Source: Rhodospirillaceae bacterium (GTDB taxonomy: Bacteria; Pseudomonadota; Alphaproteobacteria; CACIAM-22H2). Taken from it: 64,000 nucleotides of DNA. Shown here one piece after another: positions 13,797-64,000 of this stretch (the first letter of the stretch is position 1; each line of letters opens with the position of its first letter). The DNA lies in contig JAIXXA010000145.1 of the NCBI GenBank assembly GCA_027490975.1, positions 5,723 to 69,722 on the forward strand, in the 5' to 3' direction. A program made the translations under genes and the position numbers. The notes beneath the pieces were generated by a model that saw nothing but the letters and a program-made list of their open reading frames with translations, had not been told where the DNA came from and did no database searches.

Positions 13797-14103
13797 TTAA
13801 ATCTCCATTTTGACTTTGCGACTGCCTCGTAGAATTCGAACGATACTCCAGTTGGGCACTCGATTTGAAGGGGAAGGTTGGCGGCGCATGCGGCGCAACG
13901 CAGAAATCGCCGTTCTCGGATACCGAGTTTCCGTCAACAAAGGCAGTCCGCGACGTTGCTGTCGAGGCGAAGGAAAGGATAGCAATAGGGCTGGGCTGGT
14001 GAACGAAGTGAAGTCGCGCGCCGCGGCCGAAGTCGCCAACCGCGCCAAATCGAGTTTTGCGGCGGCAATGCTTAACTGAAATGCTTGACTGAAAGGATCG
14101 AAA

Positions 14104-41001: not shown

Positions 41002-41020
41002 GGCGGCAACCCTTTCGGCT

Positions 41021-41785: not shown

Positions 41786-41829
41786 GGCGACGTTCTCCCC
41801 CTCGTCTTTCGCGTGTTGTTGATAGCGTC

Positions 41830-42948
41830 TTAAGCCGGTCCGTCCTGTTGTGCAACAAGATCGGCGACATGGGCCCCGATCGCGCCCGATGCCGTGAGGC
41901 CGGGCGATTCGATGCCGTAGAGCGCGAAATAGCCCGCAACGCCGTGCGTTTCGGGCCCCTGGATCAGGAAATCCGGGTTGCTTGCCCCTTGCGGCACGAT
42001 CTTGGGCCGGATGCCCGAGTAGGAGGGTTGGATCGCCCCGTCTTTGAGGCCGGGCCAATAGCGGCGCACTTCGGCATAGAAGGATTCGCTGCGCTTGGGA
42101 TCGACGTCGTAGTCGATCGCGTCGATCCATTCGACGTCGGGGCCAAAACGCGCCTGGCCTGCAAGGTCGATCGTGATGTGCACGCCGAGCCCGCCCGGAG
42201 CGGGAACCGGGTAGATGAGCCGCGAAAACGGCGGGCGGCCCTGGAGTGCGAAGTAGTTGCCCTTGGCGTAATAGAGGGGCGGCACATCGGTTTGCTTGAT
42301 GCCGTCGATCGCATTGGCGATCTTCTGGGCGCCCAAGCCTGCGGCATTCACGAAAGTGCGCGCTTTGATCTGCATCGGCGACGCCCCCCCGGTCGCGAGC
42401 ACGATGCCGTCATTGGCGACGTAGCCGCCCACGACTGGCGTTTCGAAGGCGAGCATGGCGCCGCGATCCTCGGCCTCGCCCTGATAGGCCAGCATCAGCG
42501 CATGGCTGTCGACGATGCCGGTGGAGGGCGAGAGCAGCGCCGCAACGCACGTGAGCTCGGGCTCGATTGCGCGGGCGGCAGCGCCGTCGATGAGTTCGAG
42601 GTCGTCGACGCCGTTGGCAGCAGCCTGGGCGCGCAGTTTTTCGAGCGACGGAATCTGGCCGGCGTCGGTCGCGACGATCAGTTTCGTGCAGCGCCGATGC
42701 GCAAGCCCGCGCGCGGCGCAATAGTCGTAGATGAAGTGTTTGCCCGCCACGCACAGGCGCGCTTTGAGGCTGCCGGTCGGGTAGTAGATGCCGGCGTGGA
42801 TCACTTCGCTGTTGCGCGACGAGGTTTCCGTGCCGATCGCGTCGGCGGCTTCGAGCACGATCACGTCGCGCCCGGCAAGGGCGAGCGCGCACGCAACGGC
42901 AAGTCCCACCACGCCTGCCCCCGCGACGACGCAATCGGCCGTTTCCAA
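41830..42948 (-). CDS. FAD-dependent oxidoreductase (L-2-hydroxyglutarate oxidase/dehydrogenase-like)
   Basis: N-terminal GAGVVG FAD motif; LhgO/YgaF-like length and C-terminus. Confidence 0.7.
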   Translation of the reverse strand: METADCVVAGAGVVGLAVACALALAGRDVIVLEAADAIGTETSSRNSEVIHAGIYYPTGSLKARLCVAGKHFIYDYCAARGLAHRRCTKLIVATDAGQIPSLEKLRAQAAANGVDDLELIDGAAARAIEPELTCVAALLSPSTGIVDSHALMLAYQGEAEDRGAMLAFETPVVGGYVANDGIVLATGGASPMQIKARTFVNAAGLGAQKIANAIDGIKQTDVPPLYYAKGNYFALQGRPPFSRLIYPVPAPGGLGVHITIDLAGQARFGPDVEWIDAIDYDVDPKRSESFYAEVRRYWPGLKDGAIQPSYSGIRPKIVPQGASNPDFLIQGPETHGVAGYFALYGIESPGLTASGAIGAHVADLVAQQDGPA

Positions 42949-42960
42949 GCGCAGGCCCTT

Positions 42961-43227
42961 TTATTCGCCGTAGGGGCTGGGGCGCGCGTCGAGCATCGCG
43001 TTCCAGATCGGCATCACGACGTCGCCGGGCCGCTTGGTGCCGTAGACGATGGCCTTGACGGCCGCGTCGAACATCGGGCGCGACGGCACGGCCGGCACGA
43101 TATGGTAGCCGGCGCGCTCGAGCGCTTGGATCGCGGCCTGCGCCTGGACGCTGTAGTTCTCGAAAAAATAGCGCGTGTCGGCTTCGCGGATAGCGCGCGC
43201 GAGGATGAGATCGGGCGTTTCGGGCAT
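42961..43227 (-). CDS. Small (88 aa) hypothetical protein translationally coupled to cheZ-like gene
   Basis: ATGA overlap with upstream gene; no recognisable family. Confidence 0.45.
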   Translation of the reverse strand: MPETPDLILARAIREADTRYFFENYSVQAQAAIQALERAGYHIVPAVPSRPMFDAAVKAIVYGTKRPGDVVMPIWNAMLDARPSPYGE

Positions 43228-44000
43228 CAGTCGAAGAGCTTGTCGATGTCGGACTGCGAGTTGGTTTTGTCGACGTCCTGCGGCCCGTGCAGCACCACGC
43301 CGCCGACGTCCTTGATGTGGATGCTGTCGGCGTCCGACACCGGCAGCAGCTTGATCTCTTCGGTGCCCCAGATTTCCATCATCTTCTGCACGCGCTCTTC
43401 GATGAAGGCGAGCGTGCGCACGACCTTGTTGATGCGCTGGCCGGTCAGATCCTGGAACGAGCAGGCCTCGATGATCGCGGTGCACATGTCCGAGATTTCG
43501 GCGATGCGCTGCTGGCCGTATTCGTCGATCTTCATCGTGCGCAGCTCGCGCGCGATCTCCTCGATCTTTTCCACGCCGTCGAAAATCTGCGAGGTTGCGG
43601 TTTCGGTCTGCGAGACGACCGAAGACAGTTCCATCGATGCGCTCGCGAGTTTGTCTTCGGTCGCAAGCGGATGCTTGAGGGCGCCGATTTCGCGTTTGGT
43701 CTGCGCGATGCGCGCGGCGATGCCGTGCACCTCGTCGCGGATCTTGTTGATCTCCGTCATGTCGAACCCGGGGGCCGCAGCGGCCGCCGTGCCGATGCCG
43801 TCGATCTTCTTGCCGAGATCGGCGATGTCGGCCCGCAAGGCCGCGATCGCGGCGGCCGCATCACCGCCCAGCGCTGCCGCCGGCAGCGCAAGCGCGCCCG
43901 TTTTGGCGAGCGGGGCCGCCGTATGGCCGTTCGCAGGCATCTTGCCTTCGCGGATCAGCAGCTTTTCGGCCGTGAATACGGATCTTTGCAGCGGCGGCAT
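43227..44000 (-). CDS. cheZ: CheZ-like CheY-P phosphatase
   Basis: Catalytic CheZ motif FQDLTGQRI and acidic C-terminal CheA-binding-like tail (SQSDIDKLFD). Confidence 0.65.
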   Translation of the reverse strand: MPPLQRSVFTAEKLLIREGKMPANGHTAAPLAKTGALALPAAALGGDAAAAIAALRADIADLGKKIDGIGTAAAAAPGFDMTEINKIRDEVHGIAARIAQTKREIGALKHPLATEDKLASASMELSSVVSQTETATSQIFDGVEKIEEIARELRTMKIDEYGQQRIAEISDMCTAIIEACSFQDLTGQRINKVVRTLAFIEERVQKMMEIWGTEEIKLLPVSDADSIHIKDVGGVVLHGPQDVDKTNSQSDIDKLFD

Positions 44001-44078
44001 GGCGTCATGACCTCACGTTTGGGCATCCCCGGAAACGGCCGTTTTTATCACGAACGACTCGCCGAAATCCCGAGATAA

Positions 44079-47366: not shown

Positions 47367-47908
47367 ACCCTCACGAAGCGCCAAGGCTGGCAGTTGCCGA
47401 CCGACGCTGCATGCCAAGCGATCGCCAGAATTCTGTCGTGCACGGTTTCGGCACGGGGCGTGTCGCGGCAGTGCGTAACTTCCCGCCACCAGACGAACAG
47501 ATCCGCGAGGTACAAGCAAAGGCCCGCGTCGATTCCCGGTGCGCCGCTGGGCCCGGAAACTTCCGTATCGCATTGCGCGGGGCTGCGTCGGCGGAGACCC
47601 GTGCCGCTTTCGGCATGCGCCGATCGAAAGCATTTTGGTCGCAATCAAAAGACATTGCAGCACGCCGAATCATCGACGAAAAAACCGAATTAAATCAGCG
47701 CTTTATCTGCATGTATACGAAGGTCTTCTTGTAATATGGTTAATTGGCATCATATCAGGATGAGTTGTCGTACAACTCGCTCCTCACTACGATTGTAGCG
47801 AAAGACATCGTCGCAAACGAAACAACGAGATCACGCAGAACTGGCCCACCCATCGCCAAAAAGTCCGCAAAAATTGCGGCGGGCAACTTGCCTCCTGGAG
47901 CATCCCGA

Positions 47909-49933
47909 ATGTCGTTTTTTGCCTCGCTCAACAGCAATTTTCGTATCGGAACGCGTATCGGCGCCGGGTCCGCTCTCATTCTGGCCCTTCTCGCCGCCGT
48001 GGCTCTATTCGGCTGGAAAGGCTTGACCGACACCGAAGCGCTCTTCCTGCGCTACAATACCGTGAGCGGCAACACGATCCGCATGGGCGACGTCGATGCC
48101 GACTTCCAAAGGTTGCGGCGCTTTGTTCTGCGCTACGCCGACGGCGGCGCCAGCGCCGACCGCGCCGGCATCGAAAAGACCGCAGCATCGATCCGCGAGG
48201 CTCTCGCCGCATCGATCGCTGCGATCATTTCCGAAGAACGCCGCGCGATCGCGCGCGAAGCACAGGCGGCCTTCGAAGAATACATGCGCAATCTCGACCG
48301 GCTCTACCAGCTGCGCGACGCACGCGAAGCTGCCGTCGAGCGCGGCATGAACGAGCTCGGCCTGCAGGCGCGTACGGCGCTCACAAATGCGATCGACGGC
48401 GCCATTGCGGCCGGCGAATACCGCGCAGCTTCCTATACCGGAAAAGCGCAAGAGCAGCTCGGCCTGTTCCGCCTCAACGCGCTGCGTTACCTGATCAAGC
48501 CGGACCCGGCCTTGATCCAGACGGCCGAGCGCCAGATGAACGCGCTGAACCTGCATCTGGCGCAGGCGCGCGACGCGGCAACGGGCGAGCGCCGCGCGCT
48601 GGTCGAGCAGGCCGCCGCAATCGTCCCGCGCTATCTCGCTTCTTTCCGCCAAGCGACGGAGGCGGTGCGCGCGATGGACGAACTCGTAAACACGACCAAT
48701 GCGCAGGTTGCCGCGCGCGTGGGCGAGCGCATCGACACGCTGAAGGAGCGCCAGAAAACCGCGACGACGCAGATCGCTGCCGACGCAGCCGATGCGGTGC
48801 ATGCGAGCGTTACGACGATGCTGACTCTGTCGGTCGCGGCCCTCGTTCTGGGGCTGCTGGCCGCGTATGCGATCGCCAAAGGCATCACGGGGCCAGTCGG
48901 CGCCATGACGGCGGCGATGGAGCGTCTCGCGGGCGGCGATCTCGGCACCGAAGTTCCGGCCAAGGCCAACAAAGACGAACTCGGCACGATGGCGCAGGCG
49001 GTGCAGGTGTTCAAAGACAACGCCATCCGCGTCAAAGCGCTCGAAGACGCGCAAGCGGCCCTCGAAGCCAAAGCTGCGGCCGAGAAAAAAGCCGCCATGG
49101 CCGCCCTCGCCGACCGTTTCGAGGCCGAAGTGGGCACCGTCGTCGCCGGCGTGTCGCATGCGGCCGAACAGCTGCAGGCATCGGCCGGTGCGATGTCGGC
49201 CATCGCCGAAGAAACAAGCCGGCAGGCGACCGCCGTTGCCGCCGCATCCGAGCAGGCTTCCAGCAACGTGCAGACGGTCGCCTCGGCGGCCGAGGAGCTG
49301 TCGAGCTCGATCACGGAGATTTCGCGCCAGGTCGCTGAATCGAGCCGCATCACGGCCCAAGCGGTCGAAGATGTCCGCCACACCGGCGAAACGGTCGAAA
49401 CGCTGGCCTTGGCGGCGCAGAAGATCGGCGACGTCGTGAAGCTCATCTCCAGCATCGCCTCCCAGACAAACCTGCTCGCGCTCAACGCCACGATCGAAGC
49501 GGCGCGCGCGGGCGACGCCGGCAAGGGTTTTGCCGTCGTCGCGTCGGAGGTCAAAAACCTCGCGAGCCAGACGGCAAAGGCGACCGACGAAATCGGCGGC
49601 CAGATCGCCGAGATCCAGACGGCGACGGGTGCCTCGGTCGAAGCGATGCGCGCGATCGGCCAGACGATCGCCAAGATGAACGAGATCGCCACCGGCATTG
49701 CCTCGGCCGTCGAAGAACAAGGGGCGGCGACGCAGGAGATTGCGCGCAACGTTCAGCAGGCGGCCGCCGGCACAAACGACGTGTCGTCGAACATCGCGGG
49801 CGTGACGCAGGCCGCCAGCGAAACCGGTGCGTCCGCAAGCCAGGTCAAAGACGCGGCTTCGACGCTGGGCACGCAGTCCAGCGATCTGCGCCGTTCGGTT
49901 GCGGGCTTCCTCACGGAGGTGCGCGCGGCCTGA
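47909..49933 (+). CDS. Methyl-accepting chemotaxis protein (periplasmic helical sensor, HAMP, MCP signalling domain)
   Basis: TM1, about 290-aa periplasmic region, TM2, HAMP, signalling hairpin ([15 protein letters not shown]); start at internal ATG MSFFASL. Confidence 0.85.
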
Positions 49934-50244
49934 GGCGCCGAGCCGTCGCCGTCGCGATCGCGTATTCGTCGGCGCTTTATACGGAACATCCACGTCCGCA
50001 AAGAGACCAGTTCTTTACAGAGAGTTAACGCGGATACCTTTGATCGAATTCGAACATATTCTTCTTGCAATTCGATCCAAGAGCGGAAATAACTTAGCTC
50101 TCTCTGACTGCATTAGAATATCATACACACCCAGAAAGTAGCCGCAATGGTTGGCCAGTCGGTACCCGCCAGGTCGCCGAGCAGTCGCCAGAAAATGGCG
50201 ACGCCTATCCGGCGTGCGCTGGGAACCGCGCGGTACTGCGTTGT

Positions 50245-52380
<2,136 letters not shown>

Positions 52381-52507
52381 CCGCGCGCCGTTCGGCACCT
52401 GCCGCAGCATGCGAATGTATGCTGCACGCGCCGGAAAAGTCTGGCGCGGCGCGCGTCGGGGAGGCTAAGAATGTCTCTTTGCCGAGACATCTCCGAGAGA
52501 GCGGCAC

Positions 52508-53026
52508 GTGGAGTTCGACGACGTCATCGACCATCCGGATCTGCTGGCGCTTTACCGCCATTGGCGGGCGCTTGCCCGCGGCGCCACACCGCCGCGTGCG
52601 GCCTTCGACCCCTTCGCGATGCCACGCTTGATGCCGAATCTGTTTCTGATGGATGTTCTGCCGGACGGCGGCTTCCGGTACCGGCTGGTCGGAACCGCCA
52701 TCGACGCGCATCTGGGCGTTTCGTTCACCGGGCGACGGCTCGACGAAGTGCGCGCGGGCAAAACGCGCGACGACCTTGCCCATCTCTTCGCAACCGTGGC
52801 GAACGAACGCCGCCCCGGCTACTACGCCTCGCGCCTTGCGAGCGAGACGAACGCCCATGCCAGCTACCGACGGCTCGTGCTGCCGCTTGCGGCAGCCGAC
52901 GGCTCGGTGGCCGTGCTGCTCGGCGGCTTCTGCGTCGTATGGGCGAACGAGAGTTTGGATCCGATGCGCATCACGTCGTTCGCCAACGCGCCCGAAATCG
53001 GCGGCACGCTGATGTTTCGGCGGTAG
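52508..53026 (+). CDS. PAS_5-type small protein, paralog 3
   Basis: GTG start; same family as 12341/13026/60733. Confidence 0.55.
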   Translation: MEFDDVIDHPDLLALYRHWRALARGATPPRAAFDPFAMPRLMPNLFLMDVLPDGGFRYRLVGTAIDAHLGVSFTGRRLDEVRAGKTRDDLAHLFATVANERRPGYYASRLASETNAHASYRRLVLPLAAADGSVAVLLGGFCVVWANESLDPMRITSFANAPEIGGTLMFRR

Positions 53027-54394: not shown

Positions 54395-55300
54395 TCAGGC
54401 CTCGCTGGCGGTGCGATCGAGAAGCTGGTTGAGCCGCTCATTCGCCTCGGTCGTGAGGTTGATGTGCGAGCGTCGCTTGTCGCGCGGATCCTCGTGGCGC
54501 ACGATCAGCCCTGCTTCGACCATGTCCTGCACCCGGCGCAGCGCCGTCGTCTGGCTGATGTTCGCTGACATGCACAAGCCCGACACCGACGTCGCCTTGC
54601 CGCTTCTTTCGAGAAGTGCGAGCTCCAGAAACATGAACCAAGCAGGATCCCCGAACATCTCCTGCGGCAGCAGCTCCGATCGCTGGTTGCGGAAACGGAG
54701 CAGCGATCTGAGGGTATCTATCCGACGTCGCTCGCGGCTCTCCGGCGTCTCCGCGCCGCGGCCCGACTTGGCGAGGCCCGACTTGGCGAGGTCCGACTTG
54801 GCGAGGTCCGGCGCTGCGCTGCCCGGCGTCGGGGCAAGCAGAAGCGCGCGCAGTGCCGAAACCGCCGTATCGTTGGCGTTCGACGATTCGACGGCGCGTC
54901 GGTAGTTCGAAACGGCGGCGGCGACCACGGCAAGCGCCTCGTCGGGCTCGAACGGCTTTTGCAGATACCTTGCGACGCGCAGATCGATGGCCTCGATGGC
55001 GCTCGATATCTCCGGAAACCCCGTCATCAGGATCAGCGCGCACGCAGCGCCGCGATCGCCGCACCGCCGAATCTTCTGCAGAAAACCGATGCCGTCCTGC
55101 AGCGGCATTCGGATGTCGGAAACGACGACGCCGATGCGGTCGTCCTTGAGAAAACGTTCGAGTCCCTGCGAGGCGCTGATTGCGCCGACGGCGTCGAAAC
55201 CGGCAGCGCACAGCGCAAAGACGAGTTCTTCGACGGCCGACTCCTCGTCGTCGACAACGAGGATCTTTACGGCGTCGTCGGATTGCTGGCTTTTCTGCAT
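54395..55300 (-). CDS. Response regulator: REC domain, repeat linker, MarR-like winged-helix
   Basis: REC residues (VVDDEE, VVVSDIRMP, ILMTG, LQKPF); C-terminal wHTH (…CMSANISQTTALRRVQDMVEAGLIVRH…). Confidence 0.75.
   Translation of the reverse strand: MQKSQQSDDAVKILVVDDEESAVEELVFALCAAGFDAVGAISASQGLERFLKDDRIGVVVSDIRMPLQDGIGFLQKIRRCGDRGAACALILMTGFPEISSAIEAIDLRVARYLQKPFEPDEALAVVAAAVSNYRRAVESSNANDTAVSALRALLLAPTPGSAAPDLAKSDLAKSGLAKSGRGAETPESRERRRIDTLRSLLRFRNQRSELLPQEMFGDPAWFMFLELALLERSGKATSVSGLCMSANISQTTALRRVQDMVEAGLIVRHEDPRDKRRSHINLTTEANERLNQLLDRTASEA
54762..54810. repeat. 3 x 15-nt tandem repeat (cccgacttggcgagg) inside the REC-wHTH gene, encoding LAKSD/LAKSG repeats
   Basis: Seen directly in the DNA. 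Confidence 0.7.
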
Positions 55301-55324
55301 GCTTCGAAACTCGTCGAGAGGATG

Positions 55325-57475
55325 CTATGAGGCAAGCGTTGCCGCACCGACGGCGGTGCGTATCGGCAGCGACACCACGAAACAGGCGCCGCGATCGCCA
55401 TTCGAAACTTCGATCGTTCCTTTCAGGCTTTCGACCGTCGCACGGCAGATGGCCAATCCAAGACCGGTGCCGCCGGTGCCGGACCGTGTGGTGAAAAACG
55501 GCTGAAAGACGTTCGCGATGATGTCGGCAGGAATGCCCCCGCCGCTGTCTTCGACGAAAATCCGCACGATCTCGGGCGCCAGCGGATCCGCTTCCATGCG
55601 GATTCCGACGATGTCCGGCGCGCGCGCGCGGGAACCGGGAATCGCCTTTCCTTCCGAGCGGCTTCTCAGAATGGCATCGTAGGCGTTTGCCAGCAGATTC
55701 ACGAAGACCTGTTCGAGTTCGATGCGGCTGCATTCCAGTTCGCACGCGACGTCCGTCTCGACGATCAGATGGATACCGTCGATCCGAAACTGCTCTTCGT
55801 ACATGCCGATGGCCGCGTGTATCGCATCCGACAGCTTGGCAAGCTCGACGACGTTTCTGTCCTGCCGAATGAGCGAACGAAAACGCGTGAGGATGCTTCC
55901 CGTGCGATGGATGTTTTCGACCGCTTTGCCGGCGCGCGCGAGGAGGTCTTCCTTGGGCGCGCCCCGCTCGATAAGCGTGGTCAGGTTCGCAAGTCCGAGC
56001 CGGACCACGTTCAGCGGCTGGACCATCTCGTGGTTCAGCGTGGCCGCCAGCCGCCCGAGCGACGCCAGCTTTGCGGACTGGATGAACATCATCTCCTTGG
56101 CGCGCAATTCGGTGTTGTCGATGCCGACCCCGATGAATCGGACCGTCGAATCCACTGCTGTCTTGCTCTGCGTCCAGCTCCACATGATGTCGCGCCGCAG
56201 GCTCGAGGAATCGTTCGGGGTGAACGAAGACTCGAAACGCACCGGATACTCTTCGGCGGATCGAATTCGGCTGAAATGCCCGACCTGGTCGGCTGCGAGG
56301 CCGCCGGCCGCGACGACCGAGTCGAAGGGCCGCCCGACCAGATCGCCGCGATCCGCGACGCCGAACATCACGGCAAACGCCGAATTGCAGGCCGCAATCT
56401 GGCCGGCGGCGTCGGTCTGCACGAGGGCCGCACCGCAGCCGTCCATGATCCCGATGAGGTCCGCCGATTGCTGTTTCTGCAAGGCGGCAAGCGCATCGCC
56501 CACCCGGGCCCTGTCCTGCGCGCGCAAGAACTTCTCGAACAGAACGGCGAGGCCGATGACGAAGGCGGCCGAAAGGAAACCGATCGTCAGATAGAGACGG
56601 CGCTGCTCGTAGAAGTCGGCAAACACGGCATCGGTGTTCTTGCCGACGAGAACCGTCAGCGAAATGTCGTCCAAGCGTCGGAAGGCGAAGATCCGTTCCA
56701 CCGTGTCCAGGCGACTGACGGCTCGAAACGTCCCTTCCGACGCAACCTTGACCAACGCCTCGACTTCGAACCCGGCGATCGAGCCGCCGATGAACTGCCG
56801 CCCAGGACCGCTCGGCGCGCGCGCGCGGATGATGCCATCCAGCCCGAAAAGATTGACGAGCGTGTTGTTCGGCTCGCCCAGAACTTCGAGGAAGTTCGAA
56901 AAAAGCTGGGGGTCGACCGAAACGACGACCACGCCCAGAAACGGGCCGCCCGCGTAGCGCACCGGTCGGCTGATATTCAGCGACAAGCGCCCGGACGCGC
57001 GCCCGACAAGCGGTTTGCTGATGAACATGCGATCGGCGTCCGTGTCGCGATGCACGCTGAAATGCTCGCGATCCGACAGGTCGACGCCAATGCTCGAGGC
57101 GTTTTCGGTGGTGGCCAGCAGCTTGCCGTCCGCGCCGATCACGGCGATCTGGAACAAGGGCTCGCGCAGCACGCCCCGCCGCGCCGACCATGTCGAGATG
57201 TCGGCCGGCGGGCCGTCGTCGAGCACTTCCTCGCGAAGGAGCAGCAGCACCTGGTCGAAGCGCTGCAGCAGATTCCGGGTGAAAACCTCGAACAGCTGCG
57301 CCTCGTATTTCGCCTGAAGAACGGCGCGGCTTTCGAATTCGCTTTCGGCGCGCTTGGTCAACCCGATCGCGCCAAGCAGGATCGCGGCAGACAGCGACAC
57401 GGCGATCGCCAGCAACGTGAGCAGACGCCCCGATCCATTGGCCAAGGGTGCGAAGGATTTGTGCATTGCGTTCAT
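55325..57475 (-). CDS. Membrane sensor histidine kinase with periplasmic Cache-like domain and PAS
   Basis: TM-periplasmic-TM topology; H-box NHEMVQPL; N, G1, G2 boxes intact. Confidence 0.8.
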   Translation of the reverse strand: MNAMHKSFAPLANGSGRLLTLLAIAVSLSAAILLGAIGLTKRAESEFESRAVLQAKYEAQLFEVFTRNLLQRFDQVLLLLREEVLDDGPPADISTWSARRGVLREPLFQIAVIGADGKLLATTENASSIGVDLSDREHFSVHRDTDADRMFISKPLVGRASGRLSLNISRPVRYAGGPFLGVVVVSVDPQLFSNFLEVLGEPNNTLVNLFGLDGIIRARAPSGPGRQFIGGSIAGFEVEALVKVASEGTFRAVSRLDTVERIFAFRRLDDISLTVLVGKNTDAVFADFYEQRRLYLTIGFLSAAFVIGLAVLFEKFLRAQDRARVGDALAALQKQQSADLIGIMDGCGAALVQTDAAGQIAACNSAFAVMFGVADRGDLVGRPFDSVVAAGGLAADQVGHFSRIRSAEEYPVRFESSFTPNDSSSLRRDIMWSWTQSKTAVDSTVRFIGVGIDNTELRAKEMMFIQSAKLASLGRLAATLNHEMVQPLNVVRLGLANLTTLIERGAPKEDLLARAGKAVENIHRTGSILTRFRSLIRQDRNVVELAKLSDAIHAAIGMYEEQFRIDGIHLIVETDVACELECSRIELEQVFVNLLANAYDAILRSRSEGKAIPGSRARAPDIVGIRMEADPLAPEIVRIFVEDSGGGIPADIIANVFQPFFTTRSGTGGTGLGLAICRATVESLKGTIEVSNGDRGACFVVSLPIRTAVGAATLAS

Positions 57476-57701
57476 GGGGCCCCGGCCATCTCGATGCTGT
57501 TGTCTCTATCCCATGACAATAAAATCAACATCTTCTACCGGGACAGAACGACCCATGTCGATCCCCGTCAAAGTTCAGATTGGAATCCAAACTGAACCAG
57601 ACTGTTCTGTCGGCCGGTTCAAAGTGCGACTAGCGTGCTTAACAAGCGATTAACGGCGTGTCGGCGCGATTTGGCGCAACAAGCGGGATGGGCGTAGTCA
57701 G

Positions 57702-58640
57702 ATGTCGAAACAGATGCTGAAACCAGACACCGACGGCGCAAGCGGCCCAGGCGCAAACGGTGAAGCGCAATTGAAGCTTCGGATGGGCATCCGGCGCCTG
57801 CGCCCTGCGCTTTCGTCGGCCCGCGCCGGCGCACAGGCCAACGCCCGGGCGGCGCCCGCCCCTGTGTCCGACGAGGCGAATGCTGCGCTGATTGCCGCCA
57901 AGAATGCGGCCGAAGCCGCCAACCGAACCAAAGCAGCCCTGCTTGCCAACATGAACCACGAGCTTCGCGCGCCGCTGAACGCGATTCTCGGCTTCTCCGA
58001 AATTCTCGCCGACAACACCGTCGTCGCGCACGGACCGCTTCAGGTCGCCCGGCAAACCGAATTCGCCGGCCATCTGAACAACGCCGGCCACCAGCTTCTC
58101 GACATCGTCGAAAGCATCCTCGACCTTGCGACCATCGAAGACGAAGCGCGCGACATTCGTCCTTCGCCGACTTGCCTGGGCGGCCTCGTCGCGGATGTGG
58201 TGGCGCGGCTGCAGCCGCTCGCGTCGCAATTCGGCGTGCAGATTCGCACCGACCTCGATGCCGATCTGCCGAACTGCGCCATCGACGCCGCCCGCATCCG
58301 CCAGGCGCTTCGCAGCGTCGTCGACAACGCAATCAAGTTCTCGAACAGAAACGGCACGGTGACTGTCGCGGTCTCGCGCTCGAACGCGGCCAATGCCGTC
58401 GTCACCGTTTCGGATACCGGCGTCGGGATCGGCCCGGCGGACATCGCCGACGTCTTCCGCGAGTTTCACCATGGCGATTCGTCGTTCACGCGACGGTACG
58501 ACGGCGCCGGGCTCGGCTTGACCTATGCGAAGAAGTTCGTCGAACAGCACAAGGGCCGCATCACGCTGGCGAGCGAACGGAACGTCGGCACCACCGTGAC
58601 GATCGAATTGCCTTTCGTCGCCGCGACGCAAGAAGGATGA
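57702..58640 (+). CDS. Soluble histidine kinase (HisKA + HATPase)
   Basis: H-box NHELRAPLNAI; N, G1, G2 boxes intact; low-complexity N-terminus. Confidence 0.8.
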   Translation: MSKQMLKPDTDGASGPGANGEAQLKLRMGIRRLRPALSSARAGAQANARAAPAPVSDEANAALIAAKNAAEAANRTKAALLANMNHELRAPLNAILGFSEILADNTVVAHGPLQVARQTEFAGHLNNAGHQLLDIVESILDLATIEDEARDIRPSPTCLGGLVADVVARLQPLASQFGVQIRTDLDADLPNCAIDAARIRQALRSVVDNAIKFSNRNGTVTVAVSRSNAANAVVTVSDTGVGIGPADIADVFREFHHGDSSFTRRYDGAGLGLTYAKKFVEQHKGRITLASERNVGTTVTIELPFVAATQEG

Positions 58641-59071
58641 GCGAAATGGCGACGCCAAGCTGCAGAGTGCTGATCATCGACGACGACGCAAGCTGCGCCG
58701 AAGAATTGTGCCTGCTGCTCTCGGCCGCGGGCTTCCCCACCGAACACGAACTCAGCGCGGCCGACGGCATACGCCATTTTCTGCGCGATCCGAGCGTGCG
58801 GGTCGTCGTTTCGGACATTCGCATGCCGGATTGCGACGGGGTGCGGCTGCTCGACCAGATCCGCAGTTCGGGCGTGCGCGGCCTGGACGCGACCGTGATA
58901 CTGGTGACCGGACAGCCGGATCTCCACACCACGATCGACGCGCTCAATCTTGGCGCGTCTGCGATGCTGATGAAGCCGCTCGATCCGGTCGAGATCGTCA
59001 GCGCGGTTTCCAAGGCCGTCGACATCCAGATGGAGCTGGTGGACTCACTTCAGCCGAAGAAGGTCTCGTGA
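58637..59071 (+). CDS. Single-domain response regulator (CheY-like)
   Basis: ATGA overlap with HK; LIIDDD, VVVSDIRMP, ILVTG, LMKPL. Confidence 0.8.
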   Translation: MSEMATPSCRVLIIDDDASCAEELCLLLSAAGFPTEHELSAADGIRHFLRDPSVRVVVSDIRMPDCDGVRLLDQIRSSGVRGLDATVILVTGQPDLHTTIDALNLGASAMLMKPLDPVEIVSAVSKAVDIQMELVDSLQPKKVS

Positions 59072-59877
59072 TCTTGTCCGCGTCCGGGCCGAGACATGCC
59101 GCGCATTGCGATGCGCCATCCCAACTCGACGGCGGCGGGGACGCGCATGCGGACGTTTCGGCTTCCAAAGCGCGGCTTCTTTCGCGCTTGATCGACGAAT
59201 CGCAGGCGCCTCTGAACGCAATCATCCGGCTCTCGGCGGTCCTTCTGGACAAGGCCGACGCGCCGTCCGCAATCGGCAGTCTTTGCCGGACGGACGATCT
59301 GATCGCGCACATAAACACCGCCGGCAACCAGCTTCTCGACCTTCTCGAGAACGCCGCCGACATTGCGCAGATCGAAGACGGTCGATTGCCGCCCGCATTC
59401 AGGTCGCTGTGCGTAAACGACCTGATCTTGGATGTCGTCGGACGACTGGCGCCGATGTCCGAGCAGTTCGGGATTCCGGTTCAGATGTCGCTCGATCCCG
59501 ATCTGCCCTGCTGCATGATCGACGCGGTGCGCATGCGATGCGCGCTGCGAAGCGTGATCCGCAATGCGATCGAATTCTCGAAGCCCAATGGCGTCGTCGA
59601 CATCTGGACAACCCGGTCTGCCGAACGCGGAATTGTAGTTACCGTCGCCGATCGAGGCATCGGCATTCCCGATAAAGATCTCGAAGAAATCTTTCTGCCG
59701 CTTCATCGCCGTGTTCCTGCCGCCGCGGAATGTCCTCTCGGGCCGGGGAACGGGCTCGTTCTGGCGAAGAGGTACATCGAATACCATCGGGGAAACATCT
59801 GGTTGACGAGCAAGCCGGGGATCGGAACGACGGTCGAAATCGATCTGCCGCATGTCGCGCCGAAGCGCTGGGAGTGA
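59068..59877 (+). CDS. Histidine-kinase-like paralog with H-box His replaced by Asp (pseudo-HK)
   Basis: LIDESQAPLNAI versus MNHELRAPLNAI in the paralog 1.4 kb upstream; ATP-lid N and G1 boxes retained; GTGA overlap. Confidence 0.7.
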   Translation: MILSASGPRHAAHCDAPSQLDGGGDAHADVSASKARLLSRLIDESQAPLNAIIRLSAVLLDKADAPSAIGSLCRTDDLIAHINTAGNQLLDLLENAADIAQIEDGRLPPAFRSLCVNDLILDVVGRLAPMSEQFGIPVQMSLDPDLPCCMIDAVRMRCALRSVIRNAIEFSKPNGVVDIWTTRSAERGIVVTVADRGIGIPDKDLEEIFLPLHRRVPAAAECPLGPGNGLVLAKRYIEYHRGNIWLTSKPGIGTTVEIDLPHVAPKRWE

Positions 59878-59883
59878 CGTGCC

Positions 59884-60414
59884 GTGACCGCCGATTCCTG
59901 CAAGGTGCTTGTCGTCGACGACGATGCGAACTGCGCGGATGAGTTATGTCTTTTGCTTGCCGCAGTCGGCATCCAGACCATGAGCGCTCATTGCGCGGCA
60001 GACGGCATCATCAAATTTCTCGACGATTCGACAATCCGCGTCGTCGTGTCCGACGTTCGGATGCCCGATTGCGACGGCCTCGAACTTCTTGAGATGGTCC
60101 GCTTGTGCCGCGAACGCGGCGGCGGTGCCAGCTTCATTCTCGTCACCGGGCATCCCGAAAAGCTCACGAGCCGCGAGGCGTTGGAGCGCGGCGTGTCGGA
60201 TGTGCTGCTGAAACCGCTCGATCCGGTCCGTGTCGTCGACGCGGTCGCGCGCGCGGTCGCGCTGCAGACGGGGGCGACGCGCCGGACCGAAGACCGGGCT
60301 CGGACTGCGGAGATGGCGCGCGAGTTCCGCAATGCAGGAGCGGTCGACGATGTTCTGCTCGACGACGTCCTGGCCGCATTGAAAAAAATTCTGCGCGACG
60401 ACAAGCGCCACTGA
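59884..60414 (+). CDS. Response regulator (REC with about 50-aa C-terminal extension)
   Basis: GTG start; VLVVDDD, VVVSDVRMP, ILVTG, LLKPL. Confidence 0.75.
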   Translation: MTADSCKVLVVDDDANCADELCLLLAAVGIQTMSAHCAADGIIKFLDDSTIRVVVSDVRMPDCDGLELLEMVRLCRERGGGASFILVTGHPEKLTSREALERGVSDVLLKPLDPVRVVDAVARAVALQTGATRRTEDRARTAEMAREFRNAGAVDDVLLDDVLAALKKILRDDKRH

Positions 60415-60450
60415 GACGGGACAGCGCGCACCGGATATCCGAGCGAAGGT

Positions 60451-60495
60451 TGGTGAGCCCGCCGGGACTCGAACCCGGAATCCCTGCATCAAAAG
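60451..60495 (-). repeat. Copy of tRNA 3'-end segment (anticodon-loop-like to CCA) without the tRNA 5' half
   Basis: Reverse complement reads …cttttgatgcagggattCCGGGTTCGAGTCCCGGCGGGCTCACCA; lies in an AT-rich spacer. Confidence 0.6.
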
Positions 60496-60732
60496 TTTTG
60501 GAATTATCTATATATTTCAATGACGTTCTCCGCCTGAAACGTCAGAATCGCGCAGATTCTGTTAAGATCGTGCCGTGCTTGACCGCTCAGGCCGCCTGTA
60601 GCTTCCGGCGAACAATGCCACGCACATTCGAGATGCAGCACAAGCCGATCTGCTCGAAGGACAGATTTGACGGTTCATCGTCAGACGGCGGTCGCGTACG
60701 TTATGTAAATGCGGAACGGCGAAAAAGCGGGC

Positions 60733-61275
60733 TCAATCGTCTATCAGCGCAATGAAGTCATTCAAGAAGGGCTTCGCCGAATTTTGTAACCCGCTCTTGG
60801 CGTCAGCCGCCGGATGGATTGATATGCGCCGCAGAAAACACAGTATCGAGGTCACCTGTTCTGCGCCAAACGGGAGCAATAGCCGCTCGAATTCGACTGG
60901 ATACCCTTGCACGGCCTCACGATGAAGCTTCGAGTAAACCGGCTTTCCCGACGAAACAACCACACTGTAGTCCCGAAGGATAGAGTCGCTCATTTCCGGC
61001 GGGAGTACGTCGTCGAGCAGACGCCCGGTAAAGTTCCCGCCGTCGGATGCTACGGCATGTTCGCCGTGGACGCGGAACCGATAGCCAATTCGGCCGTCGC
61101 TCCTTTCCACATCGTACAAGATAATGTTCGGCCACCAACGCGCGATGTCTTCGGGGTAAAAATCCGTCCGACTTGGCCACCGGCGATCTCGACGCAACGC
61201 GATCCACCATTCCACCAGGTTCTTGGCTTCTCCCGGCTGGATTGCCGCAGCAATGGTGGCAATGGGATACGGCAT
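60733..61275 (-). CDS. PAS_5-type small protein, paralog 4
   Basis: Same family architecture as 12341, 13026 and 52508. Confidence 0.55.
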   Translation of the reverse strand: MPYPIATIAAAIQPGEAKNLVEWWIALRRDRRWPSRTDFYPEDIARWWPNIILYDVERSDGRIGYRFRVHGEHAVASDGGNFTGRLLDDVLPPEMSDSILRDYSVVVSSGKPVYSKLHREAVQGYPVEFERLLLPFGAEQVTSILCFLRRISIHPAADAKSGLQNSAKPFLNDFIALIDD

Positions 61276-61426
61276 CGATCGGTCCTGCTGGGTTTGTGCC
61301 GAGGTCAGAAATCGCGCACTTCAATCGAATACGTGTTGGACGTCTTGCTTGCCATGGCGCTGCTTTCCCAAGAGTTAGAGTCTCCGGCAACGCCGTAGCA
61401 GGTTAGAAAGGCGGTTCCGGACCGCC

Positions 61427-63778
61427 TCATGCCGCTTTGCTGCGCTCCACGAAGTTGAGCCAACCCGAATCCTCGGAGATCTCTAGAAACGCGACATGCG
61501 CATAGCCGTCCGCAATCGAGCGCGCAACAAACCTAATTGGTGCAAAGTATCCGTCGATCGTCAAAGTGTCGCTTTGCCCTGGAGTCAACGCAGCAGCACC
61601 AGTCAATTTTGCACCCGCAGCCGAGAGATCCACAAGCGACACGCTCGCACCGCTGCCCAGCCGCCCACGAAGCGAGACCTCGTGCCGAGTAAACATGCGC
61701 CTGTCCGCCTCGGCAGTTGATGTACGCACCACGCGAACCAGCGCTGCCCGCAAGTCCTCGATGTTCTGAGTGACCCCCGTCACCGCCGTCCGGATATCGA
61801 CGGATTGACGGCCGACAGAATCCGCGTCGTTCGAGACCAGCGCAATCCGTTCTGCGATCTCCCGCGCCGCGTTGCTGGTTTCCCCAACATTGCGCGCGAT
61901 CTCTTGGGTCGCAGCTCCCTGCTCTTCAATCGCGGCTGCCACGGCGCCAGAAACGCCGTCGATTGAAGAAATTCGCGCCCCAATAGCGCCCACCGCTTCG
62001 ACTGCGGCGTTCGTAGCGGCGCGGATCTCCGCCACTTGCCGGTCGATGTCTTCGGTCGAGCGCGACGTCTGGTTTGCGAGATTCTTCACTTCCGACGCGA
62101 CAACCGCAAATCCCTTTCCAGCATCGCCGGCCCTCGCCGCCTCGATCGTCGCGTTCAATGCAAGAAGATTTGTCTGCCTCGCAATATCGCCGATCAACTT
62201 TGCGACTTCGGCAATCTTGCCGACGGCCAAAGACAATTCTTCGATCTTTTGCCGCGCATTTTCGCTTGTCGATACTGCAGCACGCGTTTCGCCGCTGGCA
62301 CGGCTGATCTGCGAGGATATTTCATGGATCGCACCGGACAATTGCCCTGCCGACGACGACACGCTCTGGACATTTGCCAACGCTTCTTCGGAGGCAGCGG
62401 CAACGGACTGGGAATTCTCCCCGACCGCGACAGCGCGCGACGCCATTTCCGCCACGACACGATCCACGTCGCGAGCGGACTGGGCGATTGTCTCAATCAC
62501 CGAATTCGTTTCGCGCTCGACGGTCTCAGCCATCTCACGCAGCGCCTGCCGCTTCAAGCGTTCCGCCTTTGTCGCGGCGACGGTCTGTTCTGCCTTCAGG
62601 CGCTCGTTCTCGACGGCACTGGCTTTGAAGACATTGACTGCGCCGGCCATAATGCCGATTTCATCTCGTCGATCCCCACCCGGAATGGACGCATTATGGT
62701 CGCCATCGGCGAGGTTCCGCATCGCCGCCGCCATCGCGAGGAGAGGTCGCACGATTTGCGCGCCAACCACCCAAAAAGAAAACATCGCAAGACCTAGGAC
62801 GACAGCGGCAACAGCCCCGGACTCGGCCAGTTTTGCCTGAGCAACTCCACTTTCGCGTTCAATTACGCGCCGGGCAAGCTGCGTCGCGGTCCCTTGCGCC
62901 GCAATGATCCGTTCAATTGCCGTCGTCGATTGCGCAAACCACTCCGGCGCCGTGATCGGATAAGGCTGCGAGGCGTTTGCAGCTGAAAAAACGCGTGTCC
63001 GCAACTGTCCGAATGTATCAAAATATGCGGCGCGCATATCCCCCAGTACGGACGCCAGTTCCTGGGGCACGCTGTCCCGCAGGACGTCGAGCCGGTTCCA
63101 AGCCAAGCTTATCTGGCCACGATTTTCGCCCTGCAAAAGAAACTGCAGGCCACTCAGCGGCTTGCCAGTCGCGATAACGCCAGCTACGCCGCCACGTTCA
63201 CGCCCGGCATATTCGCTCATCGAAGCAAGCAGTCCCTTGACCTCGAACAATGCGCGGATTTCGGGCGGGACTTCCGCATCGATCTGGCGCTCGAGACGCA
63301 TGCGAATGTCGCTGCTCGCAACGATGACCGAACTGATGGCTGGGAACCAATCCCGGATCAGTGCTTCATCGGCTGCGGTCGCTGCATCGACCCGTCCCCG
63401 AAGCGCGCCCAATTCTGCGATTCGCTGCGACAGGCGAACATGCTCCTGCCCCAAGGATGGGGGGAGCCCAGGCAAGGCTTTCATCATTTCGCCGGCTTGA
63501 GCGAACGCAGCATCCCCGGATGTCCGACGCTGCGCGACAGTCTGTCGCTGTGCAGATGTCGCGGCAACGGGATTGGAAATGATCGTGTTCGCCGTCCCGC
63601 GCTCGACGGCCCAATCGGCTGCGGCAGCCAGAAAACGATCCGCAATCTCGTTGATCGCCTGCGCTTGCGCGAGTGCATCGCGATATTCGACTGCACTCAT
63701 TGCACGCAGACCGACAAACATGAGGGCGACGATGCTGAGAATTGCAGTAAGGGAGAAAACCTTGATGCGGAGCGTCAT
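61427..63778 (-). CDS. Methyl-accepting chemotaxis protein with C-terminal PilZ domain (Tlp1-like)
   Basis: TM1, about 300-aa periplasmic domain, TM2, HAMP, MCP signalling domain, C-terminal RxxxR (RRMFTRHE) and DxSxxG (DLSAAGAKL) PilZ motifs. Confidence 0.8.
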
Positions 63779-63984
63779 TTCTACTCTCCGTTTGTCGGTT
63801 TAGAATACGCGACGATAGCGACAGACAATTTAAGAGAACGTTAAAGCGATACCGCCTTGTCAGCAGCTACGGCCCTCCCGATAGCTGAGACGCGCCAGTG
63901 TCCCGCGCCGGTAAATGCAACCGGGCGAGACCGGCGTCAGCGAGAAGAGGCGGGCAATGGATGTACAACAAATATACAAATCGT

Positions 63985-64000
63985 TGGTGAGCCCGCCGGG
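63985..64000 (-). tRNA. 3' end (acceptor-CCA) of a minus-strand tRNA gene truncated by the window edge
   Basis: Window ends in tggtgagcccgccggg, identical to the start of the 60451 copy; body would lie beyond 64000. Confidence 0.45.

Follow-up and report, generated by a model that had tools for sequence, protein, structure and literature searches.

We identified, in a 64,000-nucleotide stretch of Rhodospirillaceae DNA (hereafter the window), a gene whose product is probably a nitrate/nitrite chemoreceptor tuned by c-di-GMP and acquired on a genomic islet, a reading built on sequence comparison, structural models and analogy with characterized receptors. The domain architecture, the folds predicted for its sensor and its C-terminal domain, the conservation of ligand-contact residues and the boundaries of the islet are all directly supported by the evidence below (Table 1).

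Table 1 Coordinates of the chemoreceptor, its domains and the surrounding islet in the window
Feature	Position	Strand	Details and basis
Chemoreceptor gene	61427–63778	−	783 aa plus stop; ORF list, HAMP and MCPsignal by Pfam
TM1	63698–63766	−	about aa 5–27; Kyte-Doolittle 19-residue window >1.8, starts at aa 3–13
NIT sensor	62822–63697	−	aa 28–319; Pfam match aa 57–295; putative ligand arginines R60, R195, R260
TM2	62750–62821	−	about aa 320–343; hydropathy peak, window starts at aa 317–325
HAMP domain	62624–62764	−	aa 339–385; PF00672, 43.7 bits (cutoff 25)
MCP signalling domain	61820–62296	−	aa 495–653; PF00015, 99.7 bits (cutoff 34.6), E 2e-28
PilZ domain	61430–61705	−	about aa 692–783; orthologue tails, tail profile, AF2 model, Foldseek
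RRxxxR c-di-GMP switch motif	61685–61702	−	R693 R694 M F T R698; alignment
DxSxxG motif	61613–61630	−	D717 L S719 A A G722; alignment
PAS_5 single-domain gene, second islet cargo gene	60733–61275	−	180 aa; PF07310, 38 bits (cutoff 22)
Islet	60499–63984		3,486 bp between tRNA-Lys and its repeat; no genes other than MCP and PAS_5
Direct repeat of 3' 48 nt of tRNA-Lys (att-like boundary)	60451–60498	−	
Last 16 nt of tRNA-Lys(UUU), other islet boundary	63985–64000	−	window ends inside the tRNA

Receptor architecture

The gene is an unbroken minus-strand ORF running from an ATG at 63778 to a stop codon at 61427–61429, with a ribosome-binding site (GGAGAG) upstream of the start codon and an N terminus that agrees with those of aligned orthologues. 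The encoded protein is ordered TM1, periplasmic sensor, TM2, HAMP, MCP signalling domain and C-terminal PilZ, and its first four elements give a class I topology in which the transmembrane segments were placed by a crude hydropathy test only. Its membership of the MCP family follows from the PF00015 match together with a conserved hairpin tip, where residues 536–565 are nearly all invariant among 30 orthologues. Approximately 900 homologues were recovered (E ≤ 1e-10), the closest of which are annotated only as HAMP plus MCPsignal. Relative to a 99%-identical strain, the codons of the gene show 9 synonymous and 6 non-synonymous differences, counts too small to prove constraint. A promoter and terminator scan around the gene performed no better than shuffled sequence, and inspection by eye of the 206-bp stretch separating tRNA-Lys from the start codon revealed no sigma-54 GG-N10-GC element with proper spacing.

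We considered whether the receptor instead acts in a chemotaxis-like pathway that controls something other than motility, for example clumping, cell length or biofilm formation, a proposal that concerns output only and is compatible with the architecture described here. No che operon adjoins the gene, an unusual fusion of CheB, CheR, PAS and histidine kinase is encoded at 14876–18565 of the window, and Che pathways in Azospirillum also affect traits besides taxis (PMC13390405; PMC3604760). Against this, the hairpin tip is a canonical CheA/CheW-binding sequence and the closest characterized relatives, Tlp1 and Aer, act in taxis (PMC3604760; PMC6406031), so we regard a non-motility output as unlikely and favour a receptor that serves taxis.

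C-terminal PilZ domain

The initial annotation had proposed an MCP with a C-terminal PilZ domain on the basis of an RxxxR plus D/NxSxxG signature, and the ORF, the HAMP and MCPsignal matches, the family-level PilZ matches and the predicted fold all agree with that proposal. The HMM search it suggested gave a divided answer. A whole-protein Pfam scan returned no PilZ match even at E ≤ 1, a whole-protein NCBIfam scan returned none either, and the isolated query tail scored 17.6 bits against PF07238 (E 0.005; profile positions 2–92 of 102), below the 22.5-bit gathering score; 24 of 25 orthologue tails, in contrast, matched PF07238 at E ≤ 0.01, the best at 9e-13. A phmmer search of PDB sequences with the single tail yielded only spurious alanine dehydrogenase matches, so a family profile was needed, and the tail-family profile matched the PilZ structures Lpg0364 (2e-7), VCA0042, Alg44, PA0012 and PA4608.

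Structure prediction converged on the same assignment. The AF2 model of the tail (pLDDT 85, with the barrel itself above 90) shows the six-stranded beta-barrel of PilZ domains followed by a C-terminal helix, and its top 37 Foldseek matches in the PDB are all PilZ domains (TM up to 0.65), many of them solved with c-di-GMP. The predicted barrel superposes on c-di-GMP-bound Alg44, PA0012 and MapZ. Because the query alone is sub-threshold, the PilZ call draws on family-level and fold-level evidence, by which we consider the tail confirmed as a PilZ domain.

Both signature motifs are present in the query, and neither was lost on realignment with 30 orthologues that are 31–62% identical to it: R693, R694, R698, S719 and G722 do not vary, and position 717 is usually D or N and in a single case E. 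We took motif conservation from this alignment, as a regular-expression census caught some false upstream matches. D717 lies 18 residues after R698, just under the published spacing of 20–30, and this spacing is common to the closest clade. Because the tail is rich in arginine and alanine and belongs to a high-GC gene, a chance match might be suspected, given a genome of 65% GC with arginine-rich proteins, a query below the Pfam threshold on its own and the spurious single-sequence hits. However, the motif residues are invariant across the orthologues, and the family HMM matches, the profile matches to PilZ structures and the fold search have already refuted this explanation, which we hold to be vanishingly improbable.

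Residues R693, R694, R698 and D717 align with R562, R563, R567 and N589 of Azospirillum brasilense Tlp1 (BLASTP against its orthologue P0071), four positions at which mutation abolished or weakened c-di-GMP binding (PMC3604760). From sequence and fold, we infer that the query receptor responds to c-di-GMP. It is nevertheless conceivable that the PilZ domain no longer binds the second messenger and persists as a structural or protein-interaction module, in keeping with the sub-threshold Pfam score, the lack of PF07238 in the precomputed annotation of most closest-clade members and a query motif of DLSAAG where the clade consensus is DLSEGG. The canonical contact residues (RRxxxR, D/N, S and G) are all retained, however, as are the four positions mutagenized in Tlp1, and the confidently predicted barrel superposes on ligand-bound structures, making loss of binding improbable and a c-di-GMP-responsive domain the preferred reading.

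A second element of the initial annotation, a c-di-GMP layer on chemotaxis suggested by an EAL-like protein at 21368, found no support. The EAL match is marginal and partial (33.5 bits; cutoff 31.3), and the gene lies about 40 kb from the chemoreceptor, outside the islet. Among the 37 of approximately 45 predicted window genes surveyed, this was the only EAL match and there was no GGDEF domain. Nothing links the EAL-like protein to the receptor, and we rejected it as part of the receptor system.

Periplasmic NIT sensor

The periplasmic region of about 300 aa, initially left unassigned, can be assigned to the NIT family. Scanned alone, the sensor matched PF08376 with 46.2 bits over aa 57–295 (cutoff 24.9), and aa 28–319 gave 41.8 bits; whole-protein Pfam and NCBIfam scans did not report the domain. 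A sensor-family profile matched NasR (4akk; E 8e-6), and 10 of 17 family sensors matched NIT (best E 5.5e-60), with 7 of 17 missing PF08376 at E ≤ 0.01. The AF2 model (pLDDT 95) comprises eight long helices arranged in the double four-helix-bundle fold of NasR, which was the sole significant fold match (TM 0.77 across some 295 columns; next matches TM ≤ 0.33) at a sequence identity of approximately 18%. By sequence and model, then, the sensor is a NIT domain.

Three groups of residues, E59/R60/G61, G192/E194/R195 and R260, are invariant in the 30 orthologues. In a profile alignment, R60, E194/R195 and R260 correspond to NasR R50, E175/R176 and R236 (numbering in the 4akk alignment is chain index minus 27), of which R50 and R176 are essential for the nitrate response and R236 has a partial effect (PMC9581486; PMC7496416). 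The NIT fold has been solved only for NasR of Klebsiella oxytoca, a NIT-ANTAR antiterminator that is soluble and cytoplasmic, whereas the query NIT is predicted to be periplasmic and to drive an MCP. Closer in configuration are PscN of Pectobacterium atrosepticum and Dd15070 of Dickeya dadantii, MCPs with a periplasmic NIT domain that, in isolation, has a micromolar Kd for nitrate and for nitrite (PMC12358799, citing Monteagudo-Cascales 2023 and Galvez-Roldan 2023). These proteins are gammaproteobacterial, and the review that lists them reports no PilZ tail (PMC12358799).

The failure of 7 of 17 family sensors to match PF08376 means that the divergent NIT domains of the query clade could have changed in ligand specificity. 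Accordingly, we weighed a c-di-GMP-tuned receptor of the same architecture whose NIT-like sensor binds another small anion or senses indirectly. The divergence of the query NIT (46 bits, against E 5.5e-60 for the best family member), the sub-threshold relatives and the low identity to NasR would all be consistent with such a shift. On the other hand, none of the three arginines of the NasR nitrate response varies within the clade (PMC9581486), the NIT domains tested so far (NasR, PscN and Dd15070) all bind nitrate and/or nitrite (PMC12358799), and the genes around the A. brasilense orthologue include Crp/Fnr regulators, cobA, hemA and a cytochrome c gene. We found no ligand-binding data for any member of the NIT-PilZ clade in the searchable literature. 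A different ligand is possible, at perhaps one chance in a few, and nitrate and/or nitrite remain the favoured stimulus.

Relationship to characterized receptors

Among the closest known systems is A. brasilense Tlp1 (AAT76671.1; orthologue P0071), which is likewise a transmembrane MCP with HAMP, signalling domain and C-terminal PilZ, and whose residues needed for c-di-GMP binding are all conserved in the query. Tlp1 binds c-di-GMP with a Kd of 6.9 uM, and binding modulates receptor sensitivity and swimming behaviour (PMC3604760). The HAMP-to-PilZ module of the query (TM2 to barrel) is 47% identical to P0071. The BLASTP alignment starts only at aa 313, with nothing N-terminal of it; the P0071 sensor carries PF12729/PF02203, a 4HB/TarH-type domain of about 170 aa, in contrast to the 290-aa NIT of the query. 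The initial comparison with Tlp1 therefore holds for the cytoplasmic half and fails for the sensor: with a different sensor type and no collinear full-length similarity, we rejected orthology to Tlp1, and by sequence the query is Tlp1-like only in its cytoplasmic half, the same module being mounted on a different sensor.

A full-length orthologue is encoded on plasmid p4 of A. brasilense Sp7 (WP_059399800.1, AMK58_RS31645; 791 aa). It is 41% identical over aa 1–764, its NIT-like sensor, HAMP, MCPsignal and PilZ are arranged as in the query, and its PilZ domain scores 28.5 bits, above the cutoff. Its gene resides on a 207-kb replicon beside the Crp/Fnr regulators, cobA, hemA and cytochrome c gene named above and an IS6 transposase; unlike the query gene, it is not at a tRNA and has no adjoining PAS_5 gene. 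A. brasilense is reported to have seven receptors with a PilZ domain (PMC6406031), of which this is probably one. No functional data on this protein were found in the searchable literature. An A. brasilense nitrate chemoreceptor was reportedly described by Ganusova et al. in 2024 under the name Tlp2, with R159 said to be essential. Under the annotated start, neither of the two Sp7 NIT-like MCPs (WP_059399800.1 and WP_059399498.1) has an arginine at position 159, and we therefore do not link them to that receptor.

PilZ domains also terminate A. brasilense Aer and Azorhizobium caulinodans Cbp1, neither of which is described as a NIT receptor. Aer senses through a cytoplasmic PAS/FAD domain and requires its PilZ domain for aerotaxis and root colonization (PMC6406031), and Cbp1 binds c-di-GMP with a Kd of about 15 uM (PMC12358799). 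In Pseudomonas aeruginosa, MapZ (PA4608), whose structure 5xly is among our fold matches, likewise gives c-di-GMP an input to chemoreceptor signalling. MapZ, however, consists of a PilZ domain alone and acts in trans on the methyltransferase CheR1, whereas the query PilZ is fused in cis. Across alphaproteobacterial species representatives, approximately 24 of 85 NIT-type MCP ORFs carry a PilZ tail. Because at least one orthologue, from Tardiphaga (L009), has no PilZ tail, the sequences indicate that the tail is dispensable in some lineages.

tRNA-Lys islet

The initial suggestion that the gene lies in an islet is borne out by a tRNA-Lys gene, a direct repeat of its 3' end and atypical GC content. 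The 3' end of tRNA-Lys (...CCCGGCGGGCTCACCA) can be read directly in the window; ARAGORN places the complete tRNA-Lys at 9719–9794 of the corresponding contig from the 99%-identical strain (L001), where blastn collinearity equates window position 64000 with L001 position 9779. The repeat at the far boundary matches the tRNA at 43 of 48 bases, including 30 of 30 at the 3' end, and occurs once in the window versus 0 expected in 100 shuffles. Islet GC is 0.587, compared with 0.649 in the rest of the window, and GC3 is 0.64 in both islet genes versus 0.79 ± 0.03 in 37 other window genes pre-filtered for GC3 > 0.72.

Both strains compared have the MCP/PAS_5 islet. Next to it, the sister strain carries a second, tandem islet (DLH plus peptidase S15; 2.58 kb) that is variable between the two strains. 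No integrase or other mobility gene was found in the query islet or in the second islet, no integrase family appeared among the genes called on L001, and no downstream repeat of the tRNA-Ser 3' end was found. Insertion at a tRNA 3' end, the direct repeat, the atypical GC and the tandem second islet resemble tRNA-targeted genomic islands, from which the query islet differs in being only 3.5 kb long and lacking an integrase. Because no integrase was found, we class the element as an islet or island remnant and not as an active integrative element; it is either a decayed remnant or is moved in trans. In other genera, the orthologues occupy sites other than tRNA-Lys.

The PAS_5 neighbour reported initially is present as a PF07310 gene 151 bp downstream of the MCP gene on the same strand, with no terminator-like site in the gap. 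Its score against the NCBIfam MopJ model, 49 bits versus a cutoff of 200, ruled out a MopJ equivalog. The 99%-identical strain and a Logan contig keep this adjacency, but other genera do not: only 1 of 80 related loci (L005) has a co-directional PAS_5 gene no more than 2 kb downstream, and we rejected PAS_5 as a conserved partner. With the MCP and the small PAS_5 gene as the whole cargo of a 3.5-kb, integrase-less islet at tRNA-Lys, the lineage has therefore probably acquired this sensory module horizontally.

Discussion

These results suggest a mechanism in which the periplasmic NIT domain, a pair of four-helix bundles, most likely takes up nitrate and/or nitrite in a pocket lined by R60, R195 and R260, and the ligand signal would pass through TM2 and HAMP to the MCP hairpin and on to a CheA/CheW complex whose genes lie elsewhere. 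On the cytoplasmic side, the PilZ domain at the C terminus would bind c-di-GMP through RRxxxR and DxSxxG, shifting signalling bias or sensitivity as in Azospirillum Tlp1, such that taxis toward or away from nitrate/nitrite would depend on the c-di-GMP level of the cell. Four parts of this scheme are inferences: what the periplasmic ligand is, the binding of c-di-GMP, which way that binding acts and which Che pathway is used.

For annotation, the case carries a practical warning, in that both NIT and PilZ were missed in a whole-protein Pfam scan. Because whole-protein scans miss the domain, censuses of PilZ receptors (52 of 20,681 in 2013) are probably undercounts.

Input of c-di-GMP into chemoreceptors has been studied in few proteins (Tlp1, Aer and Cbp1), none with a known periplasmic ligand. 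A PilZ receptor assignable to nitrate/nitrite would provide a defined stimulus for measuring the effect of c-di-GMP on gain, and the tractable A. brasilense Sp7 orthologue makes such a receptor-gain experiment feasible. More tentatively, and with somewhat less than even confidence, we propose that NIT-PilZ chemoreceptors form a distinct class in which nitrate/nitrite taxis is gated by c-di-GMP, and which here travels with PAS_5 as a horizontally transferable cassette. If so, the class would link the search for a nitrogen oxide, whether for respiration or assimilation, to the choice between motile and sessile life, and the whole device with its PAS_5 partner would be contained in a 3.5-kb integrase-less cassette between tRNA-Lys att repeats, a chemoreceptor cassette that would offer a clean example of sensory repertoire exchange.

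The sensor is a NIT domain

The receptor gene is an uninterrupted open reading frame of 783 codons that runs on the minus strand from an ATG at 63778, with a ribosome-binding site (GGAGAG) a few bases 5′, to a stop at 61427-61429, and its N terminus (MTLRIKVF...) agrees with those of its orthologues in alignment. A Pfam scan of the whole protein returned only two significant domains: HAMP (aa 339-385) and, with E 2e-28, the MCP signalling domain (aa 495-653). The initial annotation had left the sensor unassigned; scanned alone, however, aa 1-341 match the nitrate- and nitrite-sensing domain NIT (PF08376) over aa 57-295, scoring 46.2 bits (cutoff 24.9). Among 17 family sensors, 10 matched PF08376 singly (best 5.5e-60), and a profile built from all 17 matched Klebsiella oxytoca NasR (PDB 4akk), the only solved NIT structure, over most of the domain (E 8e-6). 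The AlphaFold2 model of the sensor has eight long helices (pLDDT 95, pTM 0.90), and NasR was its sole significant match in a fold search (TM 0.77 over ~295 columns; all others ≤0.33). Hydropathy peaks at ~aa 5-27 and ~aa 320-343, which places the NIT domain in the periplasm; the domain order is almost certainly TM1, NIT, TM2, HAMP, MCP hairpin and PilZ.

In the sensor-family profile alignment, two motifs invariant in the family (ERG, GRER) and an arginine further along fall on CERG, GQER and QLRR of NasR, pairing R60, E194, R195 and R260 of the query with NasR R50, E175, R176 and R236 (4akk chain index less 27, the crystallised chain being longer by that many residues at its N terminus). All four query residues are invariant in an alignment of 30 orthologues. 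A NasR-based biosensor no longer responds to nitrate when it carries R50A or R176A, and responds more weakly with R236A (PMC9581486). The proposed nitrate pocket has been described as including E175 and R176 (PMC7496416), and both nitrate and nitrite are bound by NIT-domain chemoreceptors from Pectobacterium and Dickeya (PMC12358799).

The tail is a divergent PilZ domain with Tlp1-like contacts

A C-terminal PilZ domain had been proposed from RxxxR and DxSxxG strings, which are present as R693-R694-M-F-T-R698 and D717-L-S719-A-A-G722, and had been staked on a PilZ HMM match. For the query alone that match is borderline: PilZ was absent from the whole-protein scan even at E ≤ 1, the isolated tail covered positions 2-92 of the 102-position PF07238 profile but reached 17.6 bits (E 0.005), short of the 22.5 gathering score, and a single-sequence search of the tail against PDB sequences was uninformative. 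We therefore sought evidence at the family level, where the assignment held. Many full-length relatives were recovered at 40-62% identity, a number of them with a precomputed PF07238 call, and PF07238 was matched by 24 of 25 orthologue tails scanned singly (E ≤ 0.01; best 9e-13). All 30 aligned relatives share R693, R694, R698, S719 and G722, and most have D or N at position 717. A tail-built profile matched the solved PilZ domains of Lpg0364 (2e-7), VCA0042/PlzD, Alg44, PA0012 and PA4608/MapZ. An AlphaFold2 model of the query tail, built with the orthologue-tail alignment (mean pLDDT 85, >90 across the core), shows six strands followed by a helix, and the 37 best PDB matches that Foldseek gave for it are without exception PilZ domains, many with c-di-GMP bound. 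Chance occurrence of the two motifs is excluded by the agreement of motif invariance, orthologue tails, tail profile and fold search: the tail is a real but divergent PilZ domain, overlooked by standard whole-protein annotation. At the level of predicted models, both accessory folds are confirmed.

The description of the receptor as Tlp1-like stands for its cytoplasmic half. The Azospirillum brasilense Tlp1 orthologue used for comparison (P0071; 4HB/TarH, HAMP, MCP, PilZ; numbering offset by one residue from published Tlp1) aligns with the query at 47% identity over aa 313-764, a stretch that begins shortly before TM2, whereas the two sensors do not align at all. Tlp1 binds c-di-GMP with a Kd of 6.9 uM; R562A/R563A, R567D and N589A abolish binding and R562A weakens it (Russell et al., PMC3604760). 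Alignment to P0071 places these residues (R562, R563, R567, N589) at query R693, R694, R698 and D717, which argues that the cytoplasmic half is Tlp1-like, with everything known to be required for c-di-GMP binding. We reject the query as a Tlp1 orthologue because the sensors differ. As judged from these alignments, the NasR nitrate-contact and Tlp1 c-di-GMP-contact residues are both conserved in the receptor.

NIT-PilZ receptors recur in Alphaproteobacteria

Scanning the sensor alignment against one genome per species returned 80 loci; all with a class-level label are alphaproteobacterial, mostly Rhodospirillales. The best sensor matches (Telmatospirillum, Tagaea and an 'Asaia' MAG) are just 58-62% identical, and the window's species is therefore missing among the surveyed representatives. 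The tail HMM was also matched by 24 of the 85 NIT-type MCP ORFs in these loci; the NIT-PilZ architecture is thus recurrent, yet a minority, and at least one close orthologue (Tardiphaga) lacks the tail. In a Bradyrhizobium MAG, the NIT-PilZ MCP is closely preceded by an ORF fragment that may be what is left of a duplicated receptor.

A. brasilense Sp7 carries on plasmid p4 a full-length orthologue, WP_059399800.1 (791 aa; 41% identity over aa 1-764), whose PilZ domain scores above the cutoff (28.5 bits). Its neighbours include cobA, hemA, a cytochrome c gene and genes for two Crp/Fnr-type regulators, a setting that hints at respiration under anaerobic conditions or with nitrogen oxides. Seven PilZ-containing receptors have been reported in A. 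brasilense, Tlp1 and Aer being the only two studied (O'Neal et al., PMC6406031). We found no description of a NIT-PilZ receptor in the searchable literature, outside which lies Ganusova et al. 2024 (A. brasilense nitrate chemoreceptor).

The receptor gene lies in a tRNA-Lys islet

The putative islet around the receptor was borne out and delimited by tRNA-Lys and a direct repeat of the tRNA 3′ end. The window ends within tRNA-Lys (last 16 bases, minus strand, ...CCCGGCGGGCTCACCA). In a 99%-identical sister strain (GCA_027483225.1), uvrA, a tautomerase gene, gyrA and a CTP_transf_like gene, probably coaD, precede tRNA-Lys(UUU), which lies 206 bp ahead of the MCP start; gyrA is just upstream of the islet in this lineage. 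Orthologous NIT-PilZ MCPs in an Azospirillum sp. MAG and A. griseum have gyrA ~2.5 kb downstream, either by chance or as a possible trace of an older common neighbourhood.

The repeat occurs once in the window against 0 expected (100 shuffles). The sister strain has two copies, each 48/48 identical to the tRNA, flanking an extra 2.58 kb with dienelactone hydrolase and peptidase S15 genes that are missing in the window. This segment looks like a second tandem islet, absent from or excised in the window, where its counterpart holds a single, slightly diverged repeat. The tRNA-Lys position and repeat copies therefore give the order tRNA-Lys, islet 1 (MCP and PAS_5, 3,486 bp), repeat, islet 2 (sister strain only), second repeat. 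GC content is 0.587 in islet 1 versus 0.649 in the rest of the window, and GC3 is 0.64 for its two genes versus 0.79 ± 0.03 for other genes in a comparison set pre-filtered at GC3 > 0.72. No integrase was found in islet 1 or the sister strain's islet 2, and MCP orthologues in other genera do not adjoin tRNA-Lys. The two strains' MCP copies differ at 9 synonymous and 6 non-synonymous codons, which is compatible with purifying selection, although these counts are small.

The reported PAS_5 neighbour is indeed present, 151 bp downstream on the same strand (180 aa; PF07310, 38 bits). We found no terminator-like site in the gap, so co-transcription appears possible; the adjacency is not conserved in other genera. 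The window holds four PAS_5 paralogues, three near a tRNA gene. Two of them (43% identical mutually) lie in a low-GC patch (0.49-0.59 versus 0.65) directly after tRNA-Ser(UGA), downstream of which a search for a repeat of the tRNA-Ser 3′ end was negative.

Coordinates of features in the window and in related loci
Sequence	Position	Strand	Feature	Remarks
Window	60451-60498	minus	Direct repeat of last 48 nt of tRNA-Lys	Downstream of PAS_5 gene; final 30 nt exact, 43/48 overall
Window	60415-60732		Counterpart of sister-strain extra segment
Window	60733-61275	minus	PAS_5 gene of islet 1
Window	52508-53026		PAS_5 gene
Window	12148-14103		tRNA-Ser and low-GC patch
Window	12148-12237		tRNA-Ser(UGA)
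Window	12341-12904		PAS_5 gene	In low-GC patch
Window	13026-13604		PAS_5 gene	In low-GC patch
Window	21368-22618	plus	EAL-like protein	416 aa
Window	14876-18565	minus	Hybrid protein	1229 aa; CheB methylesterase, CheR methyltransferase, two PAS, HisKA, HATPase
Window	47744-49933	plus	Second chemoreceptor	729 aa; HAMP, MCPsignal
Window	54395-60414		Two-component block
Window	41848-44010	plus	ORF	No Pfam family
Window	50113-52410	minus	ORF	No Pfam family
Window	23843-25222	plus	ORF	No Pfam family
Window	40493-41833	plus	ORF	No Pfam family
Sister strain (L001)	13329-15907		Extra 2.58-kb segment	Flanked by repeats
Bradyrhizobium MAG (L006)	3183-3416		ORF fragment	78 aa; matches C-terminal part of PilZ tail, 20 bits
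A. brasilense Sp7 p4 (L085, NZ_CP012918.1)	172491-179189		NIT-PilZ orthologue locus	One side: Crp/Fnr-type regulators, cobA, cytochrome c gene; other side: IS6 transposase, hemA

Signalling genes elsewhere in the window

An EAL-like protein had been taken to suggest a c-di-GMP layer on chemotaxis. Calling it a degenerate EAL is fair, as the DDFGTG and EGVE catalytic motifs are absent by eye, but nothing ties it to the receptor: its gene lies ~40 kb from the MCP, outside the islet, in native-composition DNA. The EAL match is partial (33.5 bits, cutoff 31.3; profile positions 66-233 of 236), the ~240-aa N-terminal region has no family, and the protein is possibly a degenerate EAL c-di-GMP sensor. 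It is the sole EAL match in a Pfam survey of 37 of ~45 predicted window genes, which detected no GGDEF domain.

The CheB-CheR-PAS-kinase hybrid is well removed from any che operon within the window. The second chemoreceptor (GC3 0.79, native) lacks PilZ, and its large periplasmic region has only a weak, sub-cutoff HBM-like match (17.5 bits). Directly beside the islet, a dense two-component block (REC-MarR regulator, dCache histidine kinase, HK-RR-HK-RR series) is collinear with the sister strain. Four ORFs of 446-765 aa with gene-like GC3 gave no Pfam match at E ≤ 1e-3 to 1e-4.

Proposed mechanism and significance

We propose that periplasmic nitrate and/or nitrite would set the signalling state of the MCP hairpin toward CheA/CheW, and that c-di-GMP at the PilZ domain would shift this state in the way described for Tlp1, so that nitrate/nitrite taxis would vary with the cellular c-di-GMP level. 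We regard this full two-input mechanism as somewhat favoured, its chief uncertainty being which periplasmic ligand is sensed. Both halves of the receptor are of known kinds, and their fusion is already in public genomes, generically annotated. The MCP islet cleanly illustrates a tRNA-targeted islet that has moved a chemoreceptor cassette, and the NIT-PilZ receptor provides a model that can be tested and that has an orthologue in a tractable organism.
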